Below, in pieces: positions 1,070-51,441 of a DNA stretch of 64,000 nt. Origin of the DNA: an archaeon (lineage in GTDB: Archaea; Micrarchaeota; Micrarchaeia; Anstonellales; Anstonellaceae); contig JAGVHI010000003.1 of the NCBI GenBank assembly GCA_020056635.1, positions 28,638-92,637 on the forward strand, in the 5' to 3' direction. Within the stretch, counting starts at the first letter, position 1. The number at the start of each line of letters is the position of its first letter. The position numbers were made by a program, and so were the translations under genes. The notes beneath the pieces were generated by a model. That model made no database searches. It saw only the letters and a list, made by a program, of their open reading frames with translations, and was not told the origin of the DNA.

Positions 1070-1095
1070 ATTGATTTATCGAATATACACATGCT

Positions 1096-1169
1096 GCGAC
1101 CGTAGTCTAGCCTGGTTAGGATCCGAGATTGCCAATCTCGAGAGCCGGGTTCAAATCCCGGCGGTCGCA
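1096..1169 (+). tRNA. tRNA-Gly (anticodon GCC), with no intron
   Basis: Acceptor gcgaccg/cggtcgc, anticodon stem cgaga/tctcg with loop ttgccaa, T-arm ccggg-ttcaaat-cccgg, discriminator a. No encoded CCA. Confidence 0.9.
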
Positions 1170-1258
1170 TTCCGAACCCAGGGGGCACCTGCGGTTCCCC
1201 CTAGGTTTGAGGTTCTTCCGTAACCCCCTCGCCAAGACAGTCTTTGCTTCATGCAGAT

Positions 1259-2413
1259 TCAGCCTTTTACAGCAATGCATGAAATTTCCACTTCAACCCC
1301 GAACGGCAGCTTCGCTGGCTGCACTACCTCTATCACCGGCAGGCTCGGCCCGAAAAAATCGGAGAGTGGGCCTTCAATTTTCCCGAGGTTGCCAAGATCC
1401 GAGAGGAAAACTGTCGCTGCAACCGCATCAGTTGGAGATGTTCCTGCAGCCGCAAAAACTTTCTTTAGGTTCCCGAGAACAGTAGCTGCCTGCTCTTCGA
1501 GCGTTCCTTCTTTGCAGATTTGCCCTGCAGTAAATACAGTGCCGTTGATTTCAACTGCATGCGAATAGGGGCCAACAGGGTCAGGCAGGCCTGGAGCGGA
1601 GATTATTCGCTTGCTCTGCGCAGCACCATGCTCTGCGATTAATGAAATTTCCACGCCAACCCCTTTTGGGAGCATTGCCATCTCCACAACTTCCCTTGCG
1701 GGTGGGCTTTGTGGGAAGAATGTCCCGTATACCTGATTCATTGCCCCAAAATCCCCAAAGTTGTCCAGATAGCCGTTGGCTTTTACTACATCAGCCATGC
1801 CCATGCCTGCGGATTTTAGCACTGCTTCAAGCTGCCTTAGGACTGCCTGCGCCTGCCCTTCGATTCCCTGCTCAGGCGAGGAAATCTGCCCGGAGAGATA
1901 GAGCCTGCTGCCTGCCATATATGCCTGCACATACGGGCCGATGGGAGCAGGAGCCTCTTGCGAGAGCACCACGTTTTTTGGCTCTGCCGAGGCGATGAGG
2001 GATACCTGCAGGTGCGCGTCTCCGGGCAATGCCGCCACCTGCACGCACTCGCGCGCCGGCTTATGATTGCCAAAAAAAGCAGCATATGCCTCATTGAAGG
2101 CGCCAAAATCGCCCATGCTTTTTAGGAAAACCCGGGCTTTTACTATGTCGGTTAGACTGAACCCTTTTGCTTGGAGCATCTCGAGTGAATGGGCGAGCGC
2201 TTCCTTTGTGCTCTCTGCAACTGTTCCCCGCGCTCCGAGTATGCCGGAAGTGAAAACAAGCTTGCTTGTGCCGCACAGGCCTGCGCCGAAAAGGCATTTG
2301 CTGGAATCCATTCTCAAGAGTCTCACCCCGCTTTCAGTTAGAACGCCAGTGTTTATAGGAGCGCCATTTGTAGCTGCCCCATTCGGGCTGCCGGATTCTG
2401 AGCGTCTTAGCAT
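1259..2413 (-). CDS. Protein made of three tandem RidA/YjgF/TdcF (endoribonuclease L-PSP) domains
   Basis: The 384-aa product divides into three ~128-aa units, each matching RidA (e.g. PAPIGPYVQAY...LYLSGQ... and PDPVGPYSHAVEINGTVFTAGQ...). Each unit ends with the ...E(I/V)(S/E)xIA pattern. Confidence 0.8.
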   Translation of the reverse strand: MLRRSESGSPNGAATNGAPINTGVLTESGVRLLRMDSSKCLFGAGLCGTSKLVFTSGILGARGTVAESTKEALAHSLEMLQAKGFSLTDIVKARVFLKSMGDFGAFNEAYAAFFGNHKPARECVQVAALPGDAHLQVSLIASAEPKNVVLSQEAPAPIGPYVQAYMAGSRLYLSGQISSPEQGIEGQAQAVLRQLEAVLKSAGMGMADVVKANGYLDNFGDFGAMNQVYGTFFPQSPPAREVVEMAMLPKGVGVEISLIAEHGAAQSKRIISAPGLPDPVGPYSHAVEINGTVFTAGQICKEGTLEEQAATVLGNLKKVFAAAGTSPTDAVAATVFLSDLGNLGKIEGPLSDFFGPSLPVIEVVQPAKLPFGVEVEISCIAVKG

Positions 2414-2490
2414 TGAATCACCCCAATAACAAGGGATGTATTTGGCTCAGAATGCATATAAATACTCGTTACCACATATAATCGACGCTC

Positions 2491-2898
2491 ATGAGATTCG
2501 CACTCACAATAAGCGGGCAGCCTTGCACTTTTGATATAGTAATCAGAACGCCGCCCCGTGCGCTTATAACTGGACCGCCAACTGAATTCCTGAGAACGAA
2601 GAGCGCGCTTGGTGGGCAGGATGAGAGGGTAATAAGCGGCACAGTCAGGAGGTTGCTTGGAAGCGCGTTTGCAGGGGAAAGGAAGCGCGGAGTGGAGATG
2701 CTTGGAACTGATGAGCAGGTGCTGGTGAGGGCTTATGAGGAATATCCGAATGCGAGGGAGCTTGTGCTGCAGAAAGGCGAGCGTTTGGTGTCCGAAAAGA
2801 GGGCAGCGGGCGATGCATTGCTAATTCTTGTAGCCCTCGGCTCCAAAGACCCGCGTGTGAAAGAGAAAGCAAATGAGCGATTGTGCGGGGGCTGCTGA
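2491..2898 (+). CDS. Hypothetical protein (weak call)
   Basis: 135-aa ORF in an otherwise empty gap. No recognisable motifs. Confidence 0.2.
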   Translation: MRFALTISGQPCTFDIVIRTPPRALITGPPTEFLRTKSALGGQDERVISGTVRRLLGSAFAGERKRGVEMLGTDEQVLVRAYEEYPNARELVLQKGERLVSEKRAAGDALLILVALGSKDPRVKEKANERLCGGC

Positions 2899-2970: not shown

Positions 2971-4365
2971 GTGGGTCGGGAAACGAATTTAATCCATGGA
3001 TTGCCAGAGCCGTTCAAAATAAAAGTAGTGGAGCCGTTGGTGGTCCCGTCTCCTGAGAGGAGGAAGGAAGCGATTAGGGAAGCGGGGTATAATACCTTCC
3101 TGCTGCGCTCGGATGATGTTTACATTGATTTGCTCACGGATTCAGGGACTGCCGCGATGTCGGACAACCAGTGGGCAGGAATGATGCTTGGGGACGAGGC
3201 ATACGCTGGCAGCAAGAATTTCTATACTCTGGAAAAATCAATCCAGGATGTGCTGGGGTTCCCGTACATAGTTCCGACCCATCAGGGAAGAGGCGCGGAG
3301 CACCTGATTTCAAGGGCATTGATAAAAAAGCCAGGGCTGCTGGTCCCAAGAAATATGTATTTCACCACTTCGAAGGAGCACGTGGAGCTTCAGGGCGCAA
3401 GCATGCCCGATGTCGTTATCGATGAGGCGCACGACCCGGAATCCATGCTGCCGTTCAAGGGGAACGTAGATATTGCAAAATTGAAGAAAGTGATTGAGCA
3501 GAACGGGGCTGAAAAAATCGCCTTTGTTTATGTGGAAATGAACGTGAACATGGCGGGCGGGCAGCCTGTCTCGATGGCAAACGCGCGCGAGGTCTCAAAG
3601 CTGTGCAAGGAGAAAGGAATAAAGCTCGTGTTCGATGCCACCCGCTCAAGCGAAAACGCTTTCTTCATCAAGGAGCGCGAGGAGGGGTATGCGAAAAAAA
3701 CGGTCGTGGAGATACTGAATGAGCTCATGGGCTATGCGGATGCGTGCATATACAGCGCGAAAAAGGACTGCCTTGTGAATATCGGGGGGTTCATCGGGAC
3801 CCGGGATATTGGGATATTCGAGGCCACACGGGAAATGGTAGTGACATATGAGGGGCTGCATACGTATGGGGGCATGGCTGGAAGGGATATGGAGGCCGTG
3901 GCGCGGGGCCTGAGGGAAGGGGCGCAATACGAGTATTTGAAATATCGGATTGGGCAGACCAATTATTTGGGCAAGATGCTTATGGATGCGGGAGTGCCGA
4001 TAGTCAAGCCAGTAGGGAGCCATGCGGTTTTCCTAAATGCGCTCAAATTCGTGCCGCACATTCCGAGGGAGCAGTGGCCTTCACAGGCGCTTGCGGCGGC
4101 AATCTATGAGGACTCGGCCGTGCGGAGCATGGAGCGCGGCGCGGTCTCGAAAGGGAGGGACAAGAACACAAAGGAGAACATTTTCCCGAAGCTCGAGCTC
4201 GTGCGGCTCACCATCCCAAGAAGGGTTTACACAAACACGCATATGGAATATGTGGCGGAATCCATAATCCACCTGCACGAGCACAAGGACGAGATAAAGG
4301 GGCTGAAAATGGTGTACGAGCCGCCTGCGCTTAGGTTCTTCCAGGCAAAGTTCGAGCAGGTCTGA
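2971..4365 (+). CDS. Beta-eliminating lyase, tryptophanase/tyrosine phenol-lyase family (PLP-dependent)
   Basis: 464 aa, N-terminus ...HGLPEPFKIKVVEP..., full length and typical spacing of Tnase/TPL. Possible GTG start. Confidence 0.85.
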   Translation: MGRETNLIHGLPEPFKIKVVEPLVVPSPERRKEAIREAGYNTFLLRSDDVYIDLLTDSGTAAMSDNQWAGMMLGDEAYAGSKNFYTLEKSIQDVLGFPYIVPTHQGRGAEHLISRALIKKPGLLVPRNMYFTTSKEHVELQGASMPDVVIDEAHDPESMLPFKGNVDIAKLKKVIEQNGAEKIAFVYVEMNVNMAGGQPVSMANAREVSKLCKEKGIKLVFDATRSSENAFFIKEREEGYAKKTVVEILNELMGYADACIYSAKKDCLVNIGGFIGTRDIGIFEATREMVVTYEGLHTYGGMAGRDMEAVARGLREGAQYEYLKYRIGQTNYLGKMLMDAGVPIVKPVGSHAVFLNALKFVPHIPREQWPSQALAAAIYEDSAVRSMERGAVSKGRDKNTKENIFPKLELVRLTIPRRVYTNTHMEYVAESIIHLHEHKDEIKGLKMVYEPPALRFFQAKFEQV

Positions 4366-4731: not shown

Positions 4732-6324
4732 TTATTTTTTGCTGCGCCCTAAGTTGTAAATATCCAGCGCTAGGTCGTGTTTCGAATCCAGGGAGCGGCT
4801 AATTGCTGAAAGGGCCAGCTGTTTCATTTCAAGGAATTTCTCACGCCCCACCTCGACATTGCCGATTGAGTAGCGCTTGTTCTTGGTGTTGAAGCAGAAC
4901 ATGCAGTCTGTGAGGTTTTCGCAATTGTGGCAATAGAGACAGTCGGAGCAAGTGCGGCAGGAGTCCATCTCAAAGCAGCGCCTAAGCTTCACTGACCAGT
5001 AGCAGTTTATGCAGAACTCCGAATCGAGAAGCGAGGTGCAGCCAAACGCATGCTCCGTGCTGCGGGGCCAGAAGGTGTAACCGCAGTATTTTGAATAGAC
5101 CGCAGGGGAGGAGCGGTAGCAGTTTGTGGAGCTGCTCGAGGTTGCGACATCAATGAGGTTTGAGTGCGTGCCCTCCTGGTACTCGCTTGTGAAGAACGCG
5201 ATTGGGGAAATTTTTTCGTGGGAATTGGAAAGTGTTAGGGATGTGGCCTCGCCTTCGCCAATTTTTGCCTGCTCGCCTAATGCAATGGCCTCTTCGCGCT
5301 TGAGCAATCTTTCTTTAGGGATTTCGAAATAGGATGCATAATCGTAGCGCACGACTTTCTTTTTGCTGAATGCGGAGGGGATGTATTCGATTTTGCGCGT
5401 GTGGCGCATGAGCCATTCTGAGTACGCATCCATGTCACCGGAAGGCGGTTTTCCAAACAGGAGGGAATAGGTTTTGGCAAATGCGGTTTCCATGGGCCGT
5501 TTGTCAGTTGGCTCAGGCTTCTGGGTTTGCAATGTGATTTCCGGCTTCATTCCACTGCACTTTGCAGCGATATCTACAAGAGCAGGCAGCTTCTTCTTCT
5601 TTTTCAGCATGTGGGCCATTTCGGAGAGCAGTTTTTCCCTTATCTGCGCGTATTTTTCTGGAGGCAGCTCAAGGTTCCCGATTGCGTGGCGCCTGTTCTT
5701 GACGTTGAAGCAGAACATGCAGTCCTGGCAAGTGTCGAGGTTGTGGGAGTAGTAGCAGTCGGAGCAGTTCTGCGCCATCCAAAGCTCCAAGCACCGCTTG
5801 TCACGGAATGTCTCGAAGCAGTTTATGCAGTGCGCAGATTCCCCAATCGCGTTGCCGCCGAAGCACTCCTCATTCAATCGCCCGTGAGTGGAATATGCCA
5901 TGTACTTGCAGTCGTTGTAAAGCCCGGTCTGGTGCATGAAATAGGAATCGGAGATGTTAGAGCTTCGTTCGACCTGCCCGGAATTGCCAAGAATGATATT
6001 GCCTGCGTAATAGAAGCGGTCGGAGAGGGAGGAGAGGAGCGAATCGATGTCTTTTATCTCATTTAGCGAGAGAGGCTCAAATTTCTTGTTGAAATCAATC
6101 TCTTCCAGCCCGACCCATTTTGAATTTTCTGAATATTCGGAAATAGCGTACGCAATCTCGCTGCCGCAAACGCTTGATTTCCGGTATTTCATTGGCAGAT
6201 TGAACCGGGTGAGCCAGGGGATGTAATCCGAGAGCGGGCCGATGTCCTGCTTGAAAATGACCCGAGAGACGCTGCGCCATTTCTTTTCCAATACAGGGAG
6301 GCATTCGGAATCCATTGGGAGCAC
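4732..6324 (-). CDS. Cys-rich protein with an internally duplicated multi-CxxC module (function unknown)
   Basis: 530 aa. Two ~150-aa repeats each end in C-x2-C...C-x2-C-x2-C...CMFCFN(V/T)KN(R/K)R(H/Y)(A/S)IGN(L/V)E(L/V). Confidence 0.6.
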   Translation of the reverse strand: MLPMDSECLPVLEKKWRSVSRVIFKQDIGPLSDYIPWLTRFNLPMKYRKSSVCGSEIAYAISEYSENSKWVGLEEIDFNKKFEPLSLNEIKDIDSLLSSLSDRFYYAGNIILGNSGQVERSSNISDSYFMHQTGLYNDCKYMAYSTHGRLNEECFGGNAIGESAHCINCFETFRDKRCLELWMAQNCSDCYYSHNLDTCQDCMFCFNVKNRRHAIGNLELPPEKYAQIREKLLSEMAHMLKKKKKLPALVDIAAKCSGMKPEITLQTQKPEPTDKRPMETAFAKTYSLLFGKPPSGDMDAYSEWLMRHTRKIEYIPSAFSKKKVVRYDYASYFEIPKERLLKREEAIALGEQAKIGEGEATSLTLSNSHEKISPIAFFTSEYQEGTHSNLIDVATSSSSTNCYRSSPAVYSKYCGYTFWPRSTEHAFGCTSLLDSEFCINCYWSVKLRRCFEMDSCRTCSDCLYCHNCENLTDCMFCFNTKNKRYSIGNVEVGREKFLEMKQLALSAISRSLDSKHDLALDIYNLGRSKK

Positions 6325-6430: not shown

Positions 6431-7111
6431 TCAGAGCTTTTTCAAAAACTGCTCAAGCGCATAAGGGAATAATTTCGATTCTGCACGCCTTAATCTCTCC
6501 TGAAGGCTCCGCCTGCTCACCTTCGCAACTGATGCGAGCTTGGAGAGGGTCGCTCCCCTTGGCCATGAATAATAATTGTTTATCAGCGCAATCTTCACTG
6601 CCTCTGCCTGCTTGTCCGTCAATGCGGGAAGCAAATTGCGGCCCTTAAAATCGCCGATTTTCATCACTTTCACATCCCCGATTGCGGAAAGCTCGGAGAG
6701 CATTTTGCCAATCCTGCCCGGGTCCGGGGCAATTACATTGTGGATTTCGTATCCTGCCTTCGCAGTGATGTTCTGCCCGTAGGTAACGCCGTTTGTGAGA
6801 ACCGCATCATAAGTTGAGCTTACGCCCTTGAACCGGAGCAGAATGGATGCTGAAGTTTTCCTTTTTTCGAGTATATGGAGCTTTATGGTTGCCTTGTCAT
6901 TCTTGACATAGCGGAGATATTCCTCGAGCTCGGATGGGGAAGAGGCCCTGATGTCCCAAAGAAGCGAATAGTCTATGTTAGAGGGTCGCTTGGAAAGGTA
7001 AACCACTGGGGAGAGCTGTTCAAGTTCGATTCCGGGAAATTTTTCGCAGCCAAGGCTGGTCTGGCATTCGTGGTGGAAAACGCCGATTGTAGCAGCCTTT
7101 ATTCTTTCCAT
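6431..7111 (-). CDS. HTH_10 (bacterio-opsin activator type) transcriptional regulator
   Basis: C-terminal LTDKQAEAVKIALINNYYSWPRGATLSKLASVAKVSRRSLQERLRRAESKL. Confidence 0.7.
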   Translation of the reverse strand: MERIKAATIGVFHHECQTSLGCEKFPGIELEQLSPVVYLSKRPSNIDYSLLWDIRASSPSELEEYLRYVKNDKATIKLHILEKRKTSASILLRFKGVSSTYDAVLTNGVTYGQNITAKAGYEIHNVIAPDPGRIGKMLSELSAIGDVKVMKIGDFKGRNLLPALTDKQAEAVKIALINNYYSWPRGATLSKLASVAKVSRRSLQERLRRAESKLFPYALEQFLKKL

Positions 7112-7201: not shown

Positions 7202-7957
7202 ATGGCATTTGAGATGATAGTTGTCGCGACATTGTGGGCAAGCGCGGTTTCGTTCGTTGGAATCTCTTTCATTTTCCTAAACGAGAGGTACCTGAGAGTT
7301 TCTATAACATTGCTTGCAAGGCTTGCTGCTGGAGCGCTCCTTGCGGCAGTTTTCTTATCGCTCCTGCCGTCCGCCCTTTTGGGCCTTGGGCCCCAGGCTG
7401 CGATGATTGCGGTGTTTGCAGGGGTGGTTGGGTTCTTCGTGACGGAAAAAAGCATTGGCTGGCACCACCACCACGATATCCATACGAGGGGGCTTGAGGC
7501 TCCGCTCGGCTGGCGCAATTACATAGGGGATGGGATACACAACCTTTGTGACGGGGTGGCAATAGGATCCGCGTTCTTGGTCAGCCAGCCTGCAGGGATG
7601 ATTGCGACGCTTGCAGTCATAATGCACGAGATTCCGCAGGAAATCGGGGATTTCGGGCTGATGCTGCGAAGCGGGTTTGACAAGCAGAAAGCAATCGTGT
7701 TCAACGCATTTTCTGCGCTTCTGCTCGTATCGGGCGGGGTGGGCTTCTTTGCAGCGTATTATTACCTGCTCCCGTTTGTGCAGAATTTGGAGTTCTACGG
7801 CATGGCGTTTGCGTGCGGCATGTTCCTCTACATTGCGATAACCGACCTGATTCCGGACGTGCACAAGGACACGCCCAAGGGATGGCTGCACACCCAGCTT
7901 GCGCTTGTGCTGCTTGGGATAATGCTGATTGCAAGCGTTGCGATTTTCGTGAAATAG
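7202..7957 (+). CDS. zupT: ZIP family zinc/iron permease (ZupT-like)
   Basis: Eight predicted TM segments, HNLCDGVAIG and HEIPQEIGDFG motifs, and a His-rich loop WHHHHDIH. Confidence 0.8.
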   Translation: MAFEMIVVATLWASAVSFVGISFIFLNERYLRVSITLLARLAAGALLAAVFLSLLPSALLGLGPQAAMIAVFAGVVGFFVTEKSIGWHHHHDIHTRGLEAPLGWRNYIGDGIHNLCDGVAIGSAFLVSQPAGMIATLAVIMHEIPQEIGDFGLMLRSGFDKQKAIVFNAFSALLLVSGGVGFFAAYYYLLPFVQNLEFYGMAFACGMFLYIAITDLIPDVHKDTPKGWLHTQLALVLLGIMLIASVAIFVK

Positions 7958-7958
7958 G

Positions 7959-9254
7959 CTAGATTGGGTTTCCAAGAAGGCAGGAATGCGATGCGCCTGT
8001 TATTTTCACCTTTGCCCAGTCGCCCATCTTAGCGTTTGCACCTGGCGGGAGCGCCACCTGCCGATAATCATTGTTCCTGCCTGTGAGCGTTTTCTGCTGC
8101 TCGGTGACAAGCACGGTGTATGTTTTGCCTATGAGGCGCGAGTTGTTTTCGCGGGAGATTTGGTGGCACAATTCGGCAGTGAGCTCGCTTCTCCTTTTCA
8201 CTACCTCGGATGGCAGCTGCTTCATCTTTTTTGCAGCGGTACCTGGGCGGGGGGTGAATTTGGAAATGTTCACAACATCGAAGCGGAATTCCTTAATGGC
8301 GGAGAGCGTTTGCTCAAAATCTTCGTCTGTTTCACCCGGGAAGCCGACAATTATGTCTGTGGCTAATACTCCGCTTAGGAACCTTTTTCGGAATTCGTTT
8401 GCAACCGTGCGGAATTGCTGCACAGCATAGCCACGTTTCATTGCGCGCAATACGGAATCGCTCCCTGACTGGATCGGCAGGTGGATGAATTTGTAGAGTT
8501 TGCGCGATTTGAAGCAGTCAAAAAATTCATTTTGAATTGGGATTACGTGCTGGGGGTTGATCATGCCCAATCTAACGCGGAAATCGCCAGGGAGATCGCA
8601 GACCTCATTGAGTAGGGTTACAATATCTGTTCCGATGTCACGGCCGTATGCGCCAGTGTCCTGCCCTGTTAGCTGTATCTCTTTTGCACCATGCTCGATT
8701 GCTATTTCAGCCTCGCGAACCACGCCCTTGAGAGTGTAGCTGCTAAGTTTCCCGCGAGCAAGCTTGGTTACGCAGAAAGTGCAGGCTGAAAGGCAGCCGT
8801 CCGCGATCGGGATGCGCGCGATTGGGCCTGTTGGATGGTCGCGAGGCAAGTTCTCCTTTGAGAGCGGGCTGCGGAATACGCCCCGCCCCCCGGCAGATGC
8901 GTTTGAGAAAGCGGCAGGCAGGTAAGCTATGGAGGATGTCCCCAGGATGGTTGCGTTGGGCGCGCTTTTCCAAACCGCCCTATGGTTTATCGCAAGGCAG
9001 CCTGCGAGAATGAGCCTCTTGCGCTTTTGGTGCAGGACCGAGAGCTTTTGCAGTATCTTCTGCTCGGTTGCGCTTTTCACCTGGCACGAGTTGAGTATCA
9101 CCACATCTGCAGCATCCTCGCTTTTCACTTCCAAATGCCCCTCGCTGTTCAGGATGCCCCGCATGATGTCAGAATCGGCAGCATTGAGTGTGCAGCCATA
9201 TGTGCGCAGGTAATATTTCAGGGGAATCACCGGGATTATGTGCCTTCCTTCCAC
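7959..9254 (-). CDS. Radical-SAM methylthiotransferase, MiaB/MtaB-like (tRNA t6A/i6A methylthiolation)
   Basis: N-terminal MTTase domain YGCTLNAADSD, radical SAM CxxxCxxC (CLSACTFC), and a TRAM-like C-terminus. The annotated start overlaps the ahcY stop by 19 nt, so the real start may be later. Confidence 0.8.
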   Translation of the reverse strand: MEGRHIIPVIPLKYYLRTYGCTLNAADSDIMRGILNSEGHLEVKSEDAADVVILNSCQVKSATEQKILQKLSVLHQKRKRLILAGCLAINHRAVWKSAPNATILGTSSIAYLPAAFSNASAGGRGVFRSPLSKENLPRDHPTGPIARIPIADGCLSACTFCVTKLARGKLSSYTLKGVVREAEIAIEHGAKEIQLTGQDTGAYGRDIGTDIVTLLNEVCDLPGDFRVRLGMINPQHVIPIQNEFFDCFKSRKLYKFIHLPIQSGSDSVLRAMKRGYAVQQFRTVANEFRKRFLSGVLATDIIVGFPGETDEDFEQTLSAIKEFRFDVVNISKFTPRPGTAAKKMKQLPSEVVKRRSELTAELCHQISRENNSRLIGKTYTVLVTEQQKTLTGRNNDYRQVALPPGANAKMGDWAKVKITGASHSCLLGNPI

Positions 9255-51231: not shown

Positions 51232-51287
51232 GCTGCCCCTGTTTCCTTTTTATTCTTTCAAGGAGTAGCATTGGTGCTGCATTTTAT

Positions 51288-51359
51288 GGGCTAGTGGCGC
51301 AACGGTAGCGCGCCTGCATGGCATGCAGGAGGCTGGGGGCTCGAATCCCCCCTAGTCCA
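51288..51359 (+). tRNA. tRNA-Ala (anticodon GGC)
   Basis: Acceptor gggctag/ctagtcc with the G3:U70 Ala identity pair. Anticodon stem cctgc/gcagg, loop atggcat. T-arm ggggg-ctcgaat-ccccc. Confidence 0.9.
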
Positions 51360-51441
51360 TTTCAATCACAACAAGAACGATAAAGGATGAGGCGCTTTTG
51401 CGAAAAAGAAGTTATTTATACTGAACAGACAATAGTTTGTT

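Follow-up and report, generated by a model that had tools for sequence, protein, structure and literature searches.

Homotrimeric RidA proteins form their pockets where two chains meet, where one chain supplies Asn together with the essential Arg and its neighbour supplies Tyr17, Gly31, Asn56/57, Pro and Glu (SsRidA structure, PMC12218379 Fig. 5). The window analyzed here (the whole 64-kb stretch of DNA) contains a single Rid-family gene, at positions 1259-2413, in which three RidA domains follow one another on one polypeptide. With three subunits on one chain the pockets are no longer equivalent, and the locus raises the question of whether its product folds like the homotrimer, and of how many of its pockets keep the residues of an imine deaminase.

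Gene model and start codon

The gene was found as an uninterrupted open reading frame on the minus strand (1259-2413), encoding 384 amino acids and closed by a stop codon at 1259-1261. Three close relatives were used for comparison: two proteins from Candidatus Micrarchaeota MAGs (P0002 and P0003, 63% and 57% identity, respectively) and one from Candidatus Burarchaeum (P0121; class Micrarchaeia, DPANN; 48% identity), which together with the window protein form a clade of four members. Existing annotations disagree on the start codon over positions 2309-2413 of the minus strand: the NCBI call for the same contig (P0390) gives 384 aa from Met1, and the JGI call for the same gene (P0001) 350 aa from Met35. 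Met1, and hence the long form, was favoured, since the four clade members all align from this residue, with an invariant Arg31 upstream of Met35, since in P0002 the residue equivalent to Met35 is not a Met, and since the ATG at 2413 is preceded, at a distance of 3 nt, by a Shine-Dalgarno-like GGGGTGAT (2417-2424, minus strand; recognized by eye, putative function). A strand-like segment, R-(L/I/F)-(L/V), located upstream of Met35, was also common to all four clade members. The motif GGGGTGA precedes both candidate ATGs, that of Met1 as well as that of Met35.

The divergent intergenic region upstream of the gene spans 77 bp (2414-2490) and includes a TATA-like TTTATAT (2456-2462, minus strand), 43 nt upstream of the ATG, which was likewise matched by eye and has a putative function. 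A scan of this region for sigma-70 promoters and terminators performed no better than on shuffled sequence, the sigma-70 model not being applicable to archaea. The first 27 residues of the protein (2333-2413, minus strand) constitute a low-complexity extension that was present in the four clade members and is probably disordered. Residues 1-40 had low confidence in the AlphaFold2 model (pLDDT 39-56), leaving the first strand of the first domain uncertain. The maximum 10-residue hydropathy of the extension (0.99) indicates that it is not signal-like, and no signal peptide was detected by hydropathy at the N-terminus of the protein.

Three RidA domains on one chain

The preliminary description of this DNA had proposed three complete RidA domains on one 384-aa chain, the first of them without the PxxIGPYS-type start, and both points were confirmed. 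Against the Pfam model PF01042 (Endoribonuclease L-PSP / RidA; gathering cut-off 27.3 bits), the whole protein gave three matching stretches with 239 bits in all. When scanned alone, domain 1 (D1; residues 28-144, positions 1982-2332), domain 2 (D2; residues 145-263, positions 1625-1981) and domain 3 (D3; residues 264-384, positions 1262-1624), all on the minus strand, scored 71.8 bits (E 6e-20), 99.1 bits (E 2e-28) and 77.8 bits (E 9e-22), respectively, values well clear of chance, so that each of the three is assigned by PF01042 to the Rid (YjgF/YER057c/UK114) family. At the level of the RidA subfamily (NCBIfam TIGR00004, 'Rid family detoxifying hydrolase'; cut-off 106.25 bits), the whole protein passed the cut-off with 255.9 bits; among its domains D2, the most canonical, was the only one above it (111.0 bits), D1 and D3 remaining below (73.6 and 82.3 bits, respectively). 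The linkers between domains are of few residues each. The start-loop motif was recognized in D2 (APAPIGPYVQA) and in D3 (LPDPVGPYSHA), and the aligned position in D1 is occupied by SKCLFGAGLCGT.

It could be argued that an error of assembly or a frameshift merged three adjacent RidA genes here, or that the open reading frame is spurious, which in a metagenome contig is an a priori possibility. Given that the frame is uninterrupted, that the linkers are so short, and that three MAGs independent of one another (P0002, P0003 and P0121; 46-63% identity) and hundreds of other proteins show the same architecture, the probability of such an artefact is considered negligible.

Proteins of this architecture were named '3x-RidA' by Niehaus et al. 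2015 (BMC Genomics 16:382; PMC4433059), with EF_0115 of Enterococcus faecalis as an example, and were presumed to be covalent trimers; in the literature searched, the term was found only in that work. Both the architecture and its reading as a covalent trimer were thus already published in 2015, and the architecture is widespread, the window gene being a further, archaeal (DPANN) case. The window protein falls within the definition of the class (three tandem RidA-subfamily domains on one polypeptide of ~380-400 aa). It differs from the class, which in 2015 was named and not characterized, in belonging to a small Micrarchaeota/Burarchaeum clade, in that its domains show no in-register relationship to those of other 3x-RidAs, and in the non-canonical pocket formed between D3 and D1.

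Predicted fold and structural relatives

The AlphaFold2 model, obtained from a 66-sequence alignment, consisted of one compact body (mean pLDDT 90.3, pTM 0.89), and a pTM of 0.89 in a three-domain chain implies a confident arrangement of the domains with respect to one another. In Foldseek comparisons with the PDB, single RidA subunits each covered one third of the model, one per domain (TMt 0.84-0.89, rmsd 1.3-2.8 Å, 36-47% identity). Each domain shares its fold with homotrimeric RidAs, represented by E. coli TdcF/RidA, S. enterica RidA, P. horikoshii RidA (PH0854, 2DYY) and S. sanguinis RidA (8V8R). The only solved single chains superposing on the whole model were chorismatases of the FkbO/Hyg5/XanB2 type (5AG3 and 5A3K, 333 aa), which aligned along all three domains in order over 346-356 columns (TMq 0.51-0.56, TMt 0.58-0.64, rmsd 4.6-5.5 Å, 13-15% identity). 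Chorismatases are reported (Juneja et al. 2014; Hubrich et al. 2015) to be monomers with pseudo-threefold symmetry composed of YjgF-like domains. No solved 3x-RidA chain was found by sequence, all phmmer and profile matches in the PDB being ≤165 aa long, and no chorismatase appeared among the best 60 of 68 matches of the sequence-profile search of the PDB.

The covalent pseudo-trimer suggested in the preliminary description was therefore recovered in silico: the domains are predicted to pack in this way on the basis of the pTM of the model, the whole-chain match to chorismatases, and the inter-domain co-decay of pocket halves presented below.

Pocket residues of the window protein

Residue positions are given in TdcF numbering for canonical RidA. 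Arg105 is essential, Tyr17 and Glu120 being merely contributory (PMC4433059, PMC12218379). The side of the pocket that carries Asn88 and Arg105 was intact in D1 (N107 and R121, together with C123 for Cys107) and in D2 (N226 and R240), and had lost both residues in D3 (E347 and I361). The opposite side, which carries Tyr17, Gly31, Asn56, Pro114 and Glu120, was kept in full in D3 (Y283, G297, N315, P370 and E376), showed a single replacement, Asn56 by Gln, in D2 (Y161, G175, Q194, P249 and E255), and in D1 had lost three of the five residues (G45 for Tyr17, H75 for Asn56 and Q136 for Glu120, with G57 and P130 retained). If the Arg side of each domain is joined to the Tyr/Glu side of the next one, the resulting D1→D2, D2→D3 and D3→D1 pockets contain six, seven and two of the seven invariant residues, respectively. 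The catalytic Arg, which the preliminary description had looked to in each interface, is hence found in D1 (R121) and D2 (R240), and is replaced by Ile in D3 (I361). A sequencing error does not account for this loss, since Val occupies the same position in P0002 and P0121.

In comparison with canonical RidA, the invariant pocket residues are maintained in two of the three pockets of the window protein, which differs in being one chain instead of three and in having one pocket without Arg105, Asn88, Tyr17, Asn56 and Glu120; as a single chain, its pockets could diverge, and did. A plain covalent copy of the homotrimer, with three equivalent and active pockets, would agree with the three full-length domains and the compact model, yet the replacement of Arg105 and Asn88 by I361 and E347 in D3, and of Tyr17, Asn56 and Glu120 by Gly, His and Gln in D1, renders it very improbable, given that the change of Arg to Ala almost abolishes the activity of plant and Salmonella RidA (PMC4433059).

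Pairing of pocket faces across the family

The co-variation of pocket residues was analyzed in a set of 100 complete three-domain proteins, each representing a cluster at 50% identity. In statistics that ignore kinship, the loss of Arg105 in a domain (Dn) was associated with the loss of Glu120 and/or the aromatic residue at position 17 in the following domain (Dn+1; OR 7.4, p = 2e-8, n=100), and with that of Glu120 alone in Dn+1 (OR 8.0, p = 3e-10, n=100). No significant association was detected between Arg loss in Dn and Tyr/Glu loss in the preceding (Dn-1) or in the same domain (OR 0.7-1.2, n=100), and the opposite geometry, in which the Arg of Dn would face the Tyr/Glu side of Dn-1, was rejected (OR 0.7, not significant). 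As Arg loss tracks Tyr/Glu loss in Dn+1, each pocket is taken to consist of the Arg face of Dn and the Tyr/Glu face of Dn+1, and the pockets appear to decay as units of these two faces. The pairing rule thus recovers the interface geometry from sequences alone.

When this rule is applied to the window protein, the defects on the Arg side of D3 (Arg105 and Asn88) and on the Tyr/Glu side of D1 (Tyr17, Asn56 and Glu120) would line one and the same pocket, a dead one, which leaves two that are canonical. The non-equivalent active sites anticipated from the divergence of the domains were in this way substantiated, co-variation placing both sets of losses together. Judged by its residues, the D3→D1 pocket would be dead as a deaminase, the essential Arg and most of the partner residues being lost.

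Incomplete pockets were frequent in the sample: none of the pockets was complete in 16 proteins, one in 32, two in 42 and all three in 10, so that at least one was incomplete in 90 of the 100 representatives. The pattern of the window protein (1,1,0) was common to 16 of them. To judge from these counts, asymmetry would be the norm among 3x-RidAs. The natural single-site and two-site variants could be of use for establishing the number of RidA sites required by a cell, and the natural pocket variants for establishing the role of the contributory Tyr17 and Glu120.

Proposed function

The reading that we favour, with a probability of roughly 0.7, is that of a cytoplasmic single-chain RidA pseudo-trimer with two canonical deaminase pockets and a dead one (D3→D1). 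The chain would adopt the fold of a canonical RidA homotrimer, with every pocket at an interface being formed by the Asn88/Arg105 face of Dn and the Tyr17/Gly31/Asn56/Pro114/Glu120 face of Dn+1. In the D1→D2 and D2→D3 pockets, 2-iminopropanoate/2-aminoacrylate and similar imines would be hydrolysed, with release of ammonia and the keto acid, and this hydrolysis would protect PLP enzymes. As for canonical RidA, hydrolysis of 2-iminopropanoate/2-iminobutanoate is expected. We infer the enzymatic activity, the substrates and a link to the neighbouring lyase, the likely role being detoxification of 2-aminoacrylate and other imines beside PLP enzymes.

Diverse activities are on record for members of the Rid family (PMC4433059). 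The protein might not be an imine deaminase at all, its pseudo-trimeric YjgF scaffold serving instead a different reaction, as it does in chorismatases, or a function that is not enzymatic. Some family members have been reported as chaperone/holdase, as RNase or in translation inhibition, and the whole-chain structural likeness to 5AG3/5A3K and the scores of D1 and D3 under the TIGR00004 cut-off would be in line with such a change. This alternative was considered improbable, since identity to the chorismatases, which act on chorismate, is just 13-15%, and the window protein, unlike them, keeps the RidA imine-deaminase residues, including Arg105, in two pockets with six and seven of the seven invariant residues, while D2 lies above the RidA-subfamily cut-off. 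In addition, no chorismatase family was matched at E≤1 in the NCBIfam search, which does not place the protein among these enzymes, and the only match outside the RidA/RutC group, to the 2-amino-5-chloromuconate deaminase CnbZ, was marginal (E 0.11; 12 bits vs a cut-off of 220).

The third pocket in the Micrarchaeota/Burarchaeum clade

The D2→D3 pocket, made up of the D2 Arg side and the D3 Tyr side, was invariant in the four-member clade, as were the two motifs that build it, PPARExVEM in D2 and PxPVGPYSHAV in D3. The D1→D2 pocket was canonical in three of the four proteins; in P0121 both of its faces had decayed (R to L in D1, Y to V in D2), as predicted by the pairing rule. The D3→D1 pocket was non-canonical in all four. 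Within D1, the two cysteines of a C40-x6-C47-G-T motif were invariant throughout the clade, and a pocket that carries invariant cysteines may not be functionless.

These residues raise a further alternative, in which the D3→D1 pocket was remodelled into a ligand-, metal- or redox-sensing site and the protein would be a deaminase with two sites that has, in addition, a second or regulatory function. C40 and C47 stand where D1 would have its PxxIGPY loop, and neither varies among the four proteins, whose overall identity is just 46-62%, and the segment that replaces the Arg side in D3, LP(V/A)(I/V)E(V/F)V, is conserved in the clade together with the PAKLPFGV that follows it. On the other hand, conservation among four sequences only is inseparable from shared ancestry, the segment has no known motif or family match, and decay is so common across 3x-RidAs (90 of 100) that relaxed selection would fit it. 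Remodelling is for these reasons given a modest chance and regarded as unlikely. The more specific proposal, that the third pocket of the clade was rebuilt around C40/C47 into a new binding or redox-sensing site, remains doubtful; if true, one chain would carry two deaminase sites and, next to them, a site for regulation or for a second catalysis, something that a homotrimer cannot evolve.

Distribution and origin of the triple fusion

The window gene extends the 3x-RidA class to DPANN archaea (Micrarchaeota/Burarchaeum), and similar fusions in related archaea, a search for which the preliminary description had suggested, were found in P0002, P0003 and P0121. Well over 200 three-domain relatives were retrieved from bacteria, archaea and diplonemid eukaryotes. 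In the first homologue search, exactly three domains were present in 120 of 120 proteins among the matches listed. When 1.84 billion cluster representatives were searched exhaustively, the best 149 of them comprised 121 proteins with three domains, 18 with two, one with six and 9 with one. Three-domain members occurred in Acidobacteriota, Acidimicrobiia and other bacteria, in Micrarchaeota and in diplonemid eukaryotes. A scan of GTDB genomes with the window protein recovered only single-domain Clostridia RidA genes (matches of ~360 nt) and no close 3x relative.

Each positional domain group of the clade was monophyletic in the observed tree, which indicates that the triplication predates the clade. 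In a first NJ tree, the three domains of the clade grouped with the single-domain TdcF, and not with the position-matched bacterial domains; as support for an independent triplication the domain NJ tree was discarded, because with broader sampling its bootstrap support was poor (13/200). In a register test, of 193 other 3x proteins only 29 paired best with the window protein in register, in contrast to comparisons inside the clade, where in-register pairing clearly prevailed (0.67 vs 0.37/0.34 and 0.50 vs 0.32/0.26). D2 and D3 were up to 51% and 48% identical, respectively, to single-domain RidAs, and ≤34% to other 3x proteins in register. The clade likely arose by a separate triplication, as far as can be judged from domain sequences.

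Some members of the wider family showed features of their own. P0158, an 803-aa protein from a Logan assembly, comprises six tandem Rid-family domains, none of which keeps Arg105, and may consist of two covalently joined pseudo-trimers, of a Rid type that is not a deaminase. Diplonemid 3x-RidAs were detected in EukProt transcriptomes from Lacrimia lanifica (P0122) and Flectonema neradi (P0141); the former keeps three pockets and, with 43% identity, was the top-scoring three-domain match outside the clade among the best 149 representatives. By a crude hydropathy measure, 84 of 212 three-domain proteins from the two homologue searches (~40%) start with a hydrophobic leader that resembles a signal sequence, and several have lipobox-like motifs; the clade of the window protein lacks such a leader. 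Many bacterial 3x-RidAs may thus be exported, a setting in which covalent linkage of the trimer might be beneficial.

Genomic neighbourhood

A PLP-dependent beta-eliminating lyase of the tyrosine phenol-lyase/tryptophanase family is encoded near the 3x-RidA gene, on the plus strand (2971-4365). It scored 709.5 bits against TIGR02618, just under the equivalog cut-off of 720.7, and 635.4 bits against the tryptophanase subfamily NF009709 (cut-off 285). Tryptophanase is listed among the enzymes that produce 2-aminoacrylate, and clustering of RidA with tryptophanase was reported earlier (PMC4433059). The neighbouring lyase is a candidate source of the 2-aminoacrylate substrate, adjacency of the two genes being suggestive of such a link. 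A conserved synteny with the lyase was considered and rejected, as P0002, P0003 and P0121 have other neighbours and the orthologues of the window TPL (83% identity) are not located beside a 3x-RidA gene. P0003 adjoins gcvT/H/P, and P0121 has SHMT and folate C1 genes two genes away. SHMT is presented as the primary target of 2-aminoacrylate in Salmonella (PMC7065518). No PLP enzyme was found near P0002, and no single neighbour was conserved across the four clade members. PLP enzymes therefore occur near three of the four members (the window protein, with its TPL, P0003 and P0121), which would fit an ordinary RidA role.

Other features of the surroundings were recorded. Between the 3x-RidA gene and the lyase lies an open reading frame of 135 aa (2491-2898, plus strand), co-directional with the lyase and divergent from the 3x-RidA gene; it had no Pfam or NCBIfam match, and may encode a small regulator or a protein that acts with the lyase, or may not represent a gene. 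A cysteine-rich open reading frame of 530 aa (4732-6324, minus strand) was likewise without Pfam or NCBIfam match. A tRNA-Gly(GCC) gene (1095-1170, plus strand) is convergent with the 3x-RidA gene, its end being 88 nt from the stop codon, and a second tRNA, Ala(GGC), was located at 51287-51360. Further along were a regulator of the HTH_10 (bacterio-opsin-activator) type (6431-7111, minus strand), a weak ZupT/ZIP-like transporter (7202-7957, plus strand) and an archaeal-type MiaB-like-B (t6A methylthiotransferase; 7959-9254, minus strand), three neighbours that fit an archaeal genome. GC skew was positive in every 2-kb bin from 2001 to 64000, the cumulative skew climbing steadily to 5.2, and may reflect a strand bias of genes or of replication.
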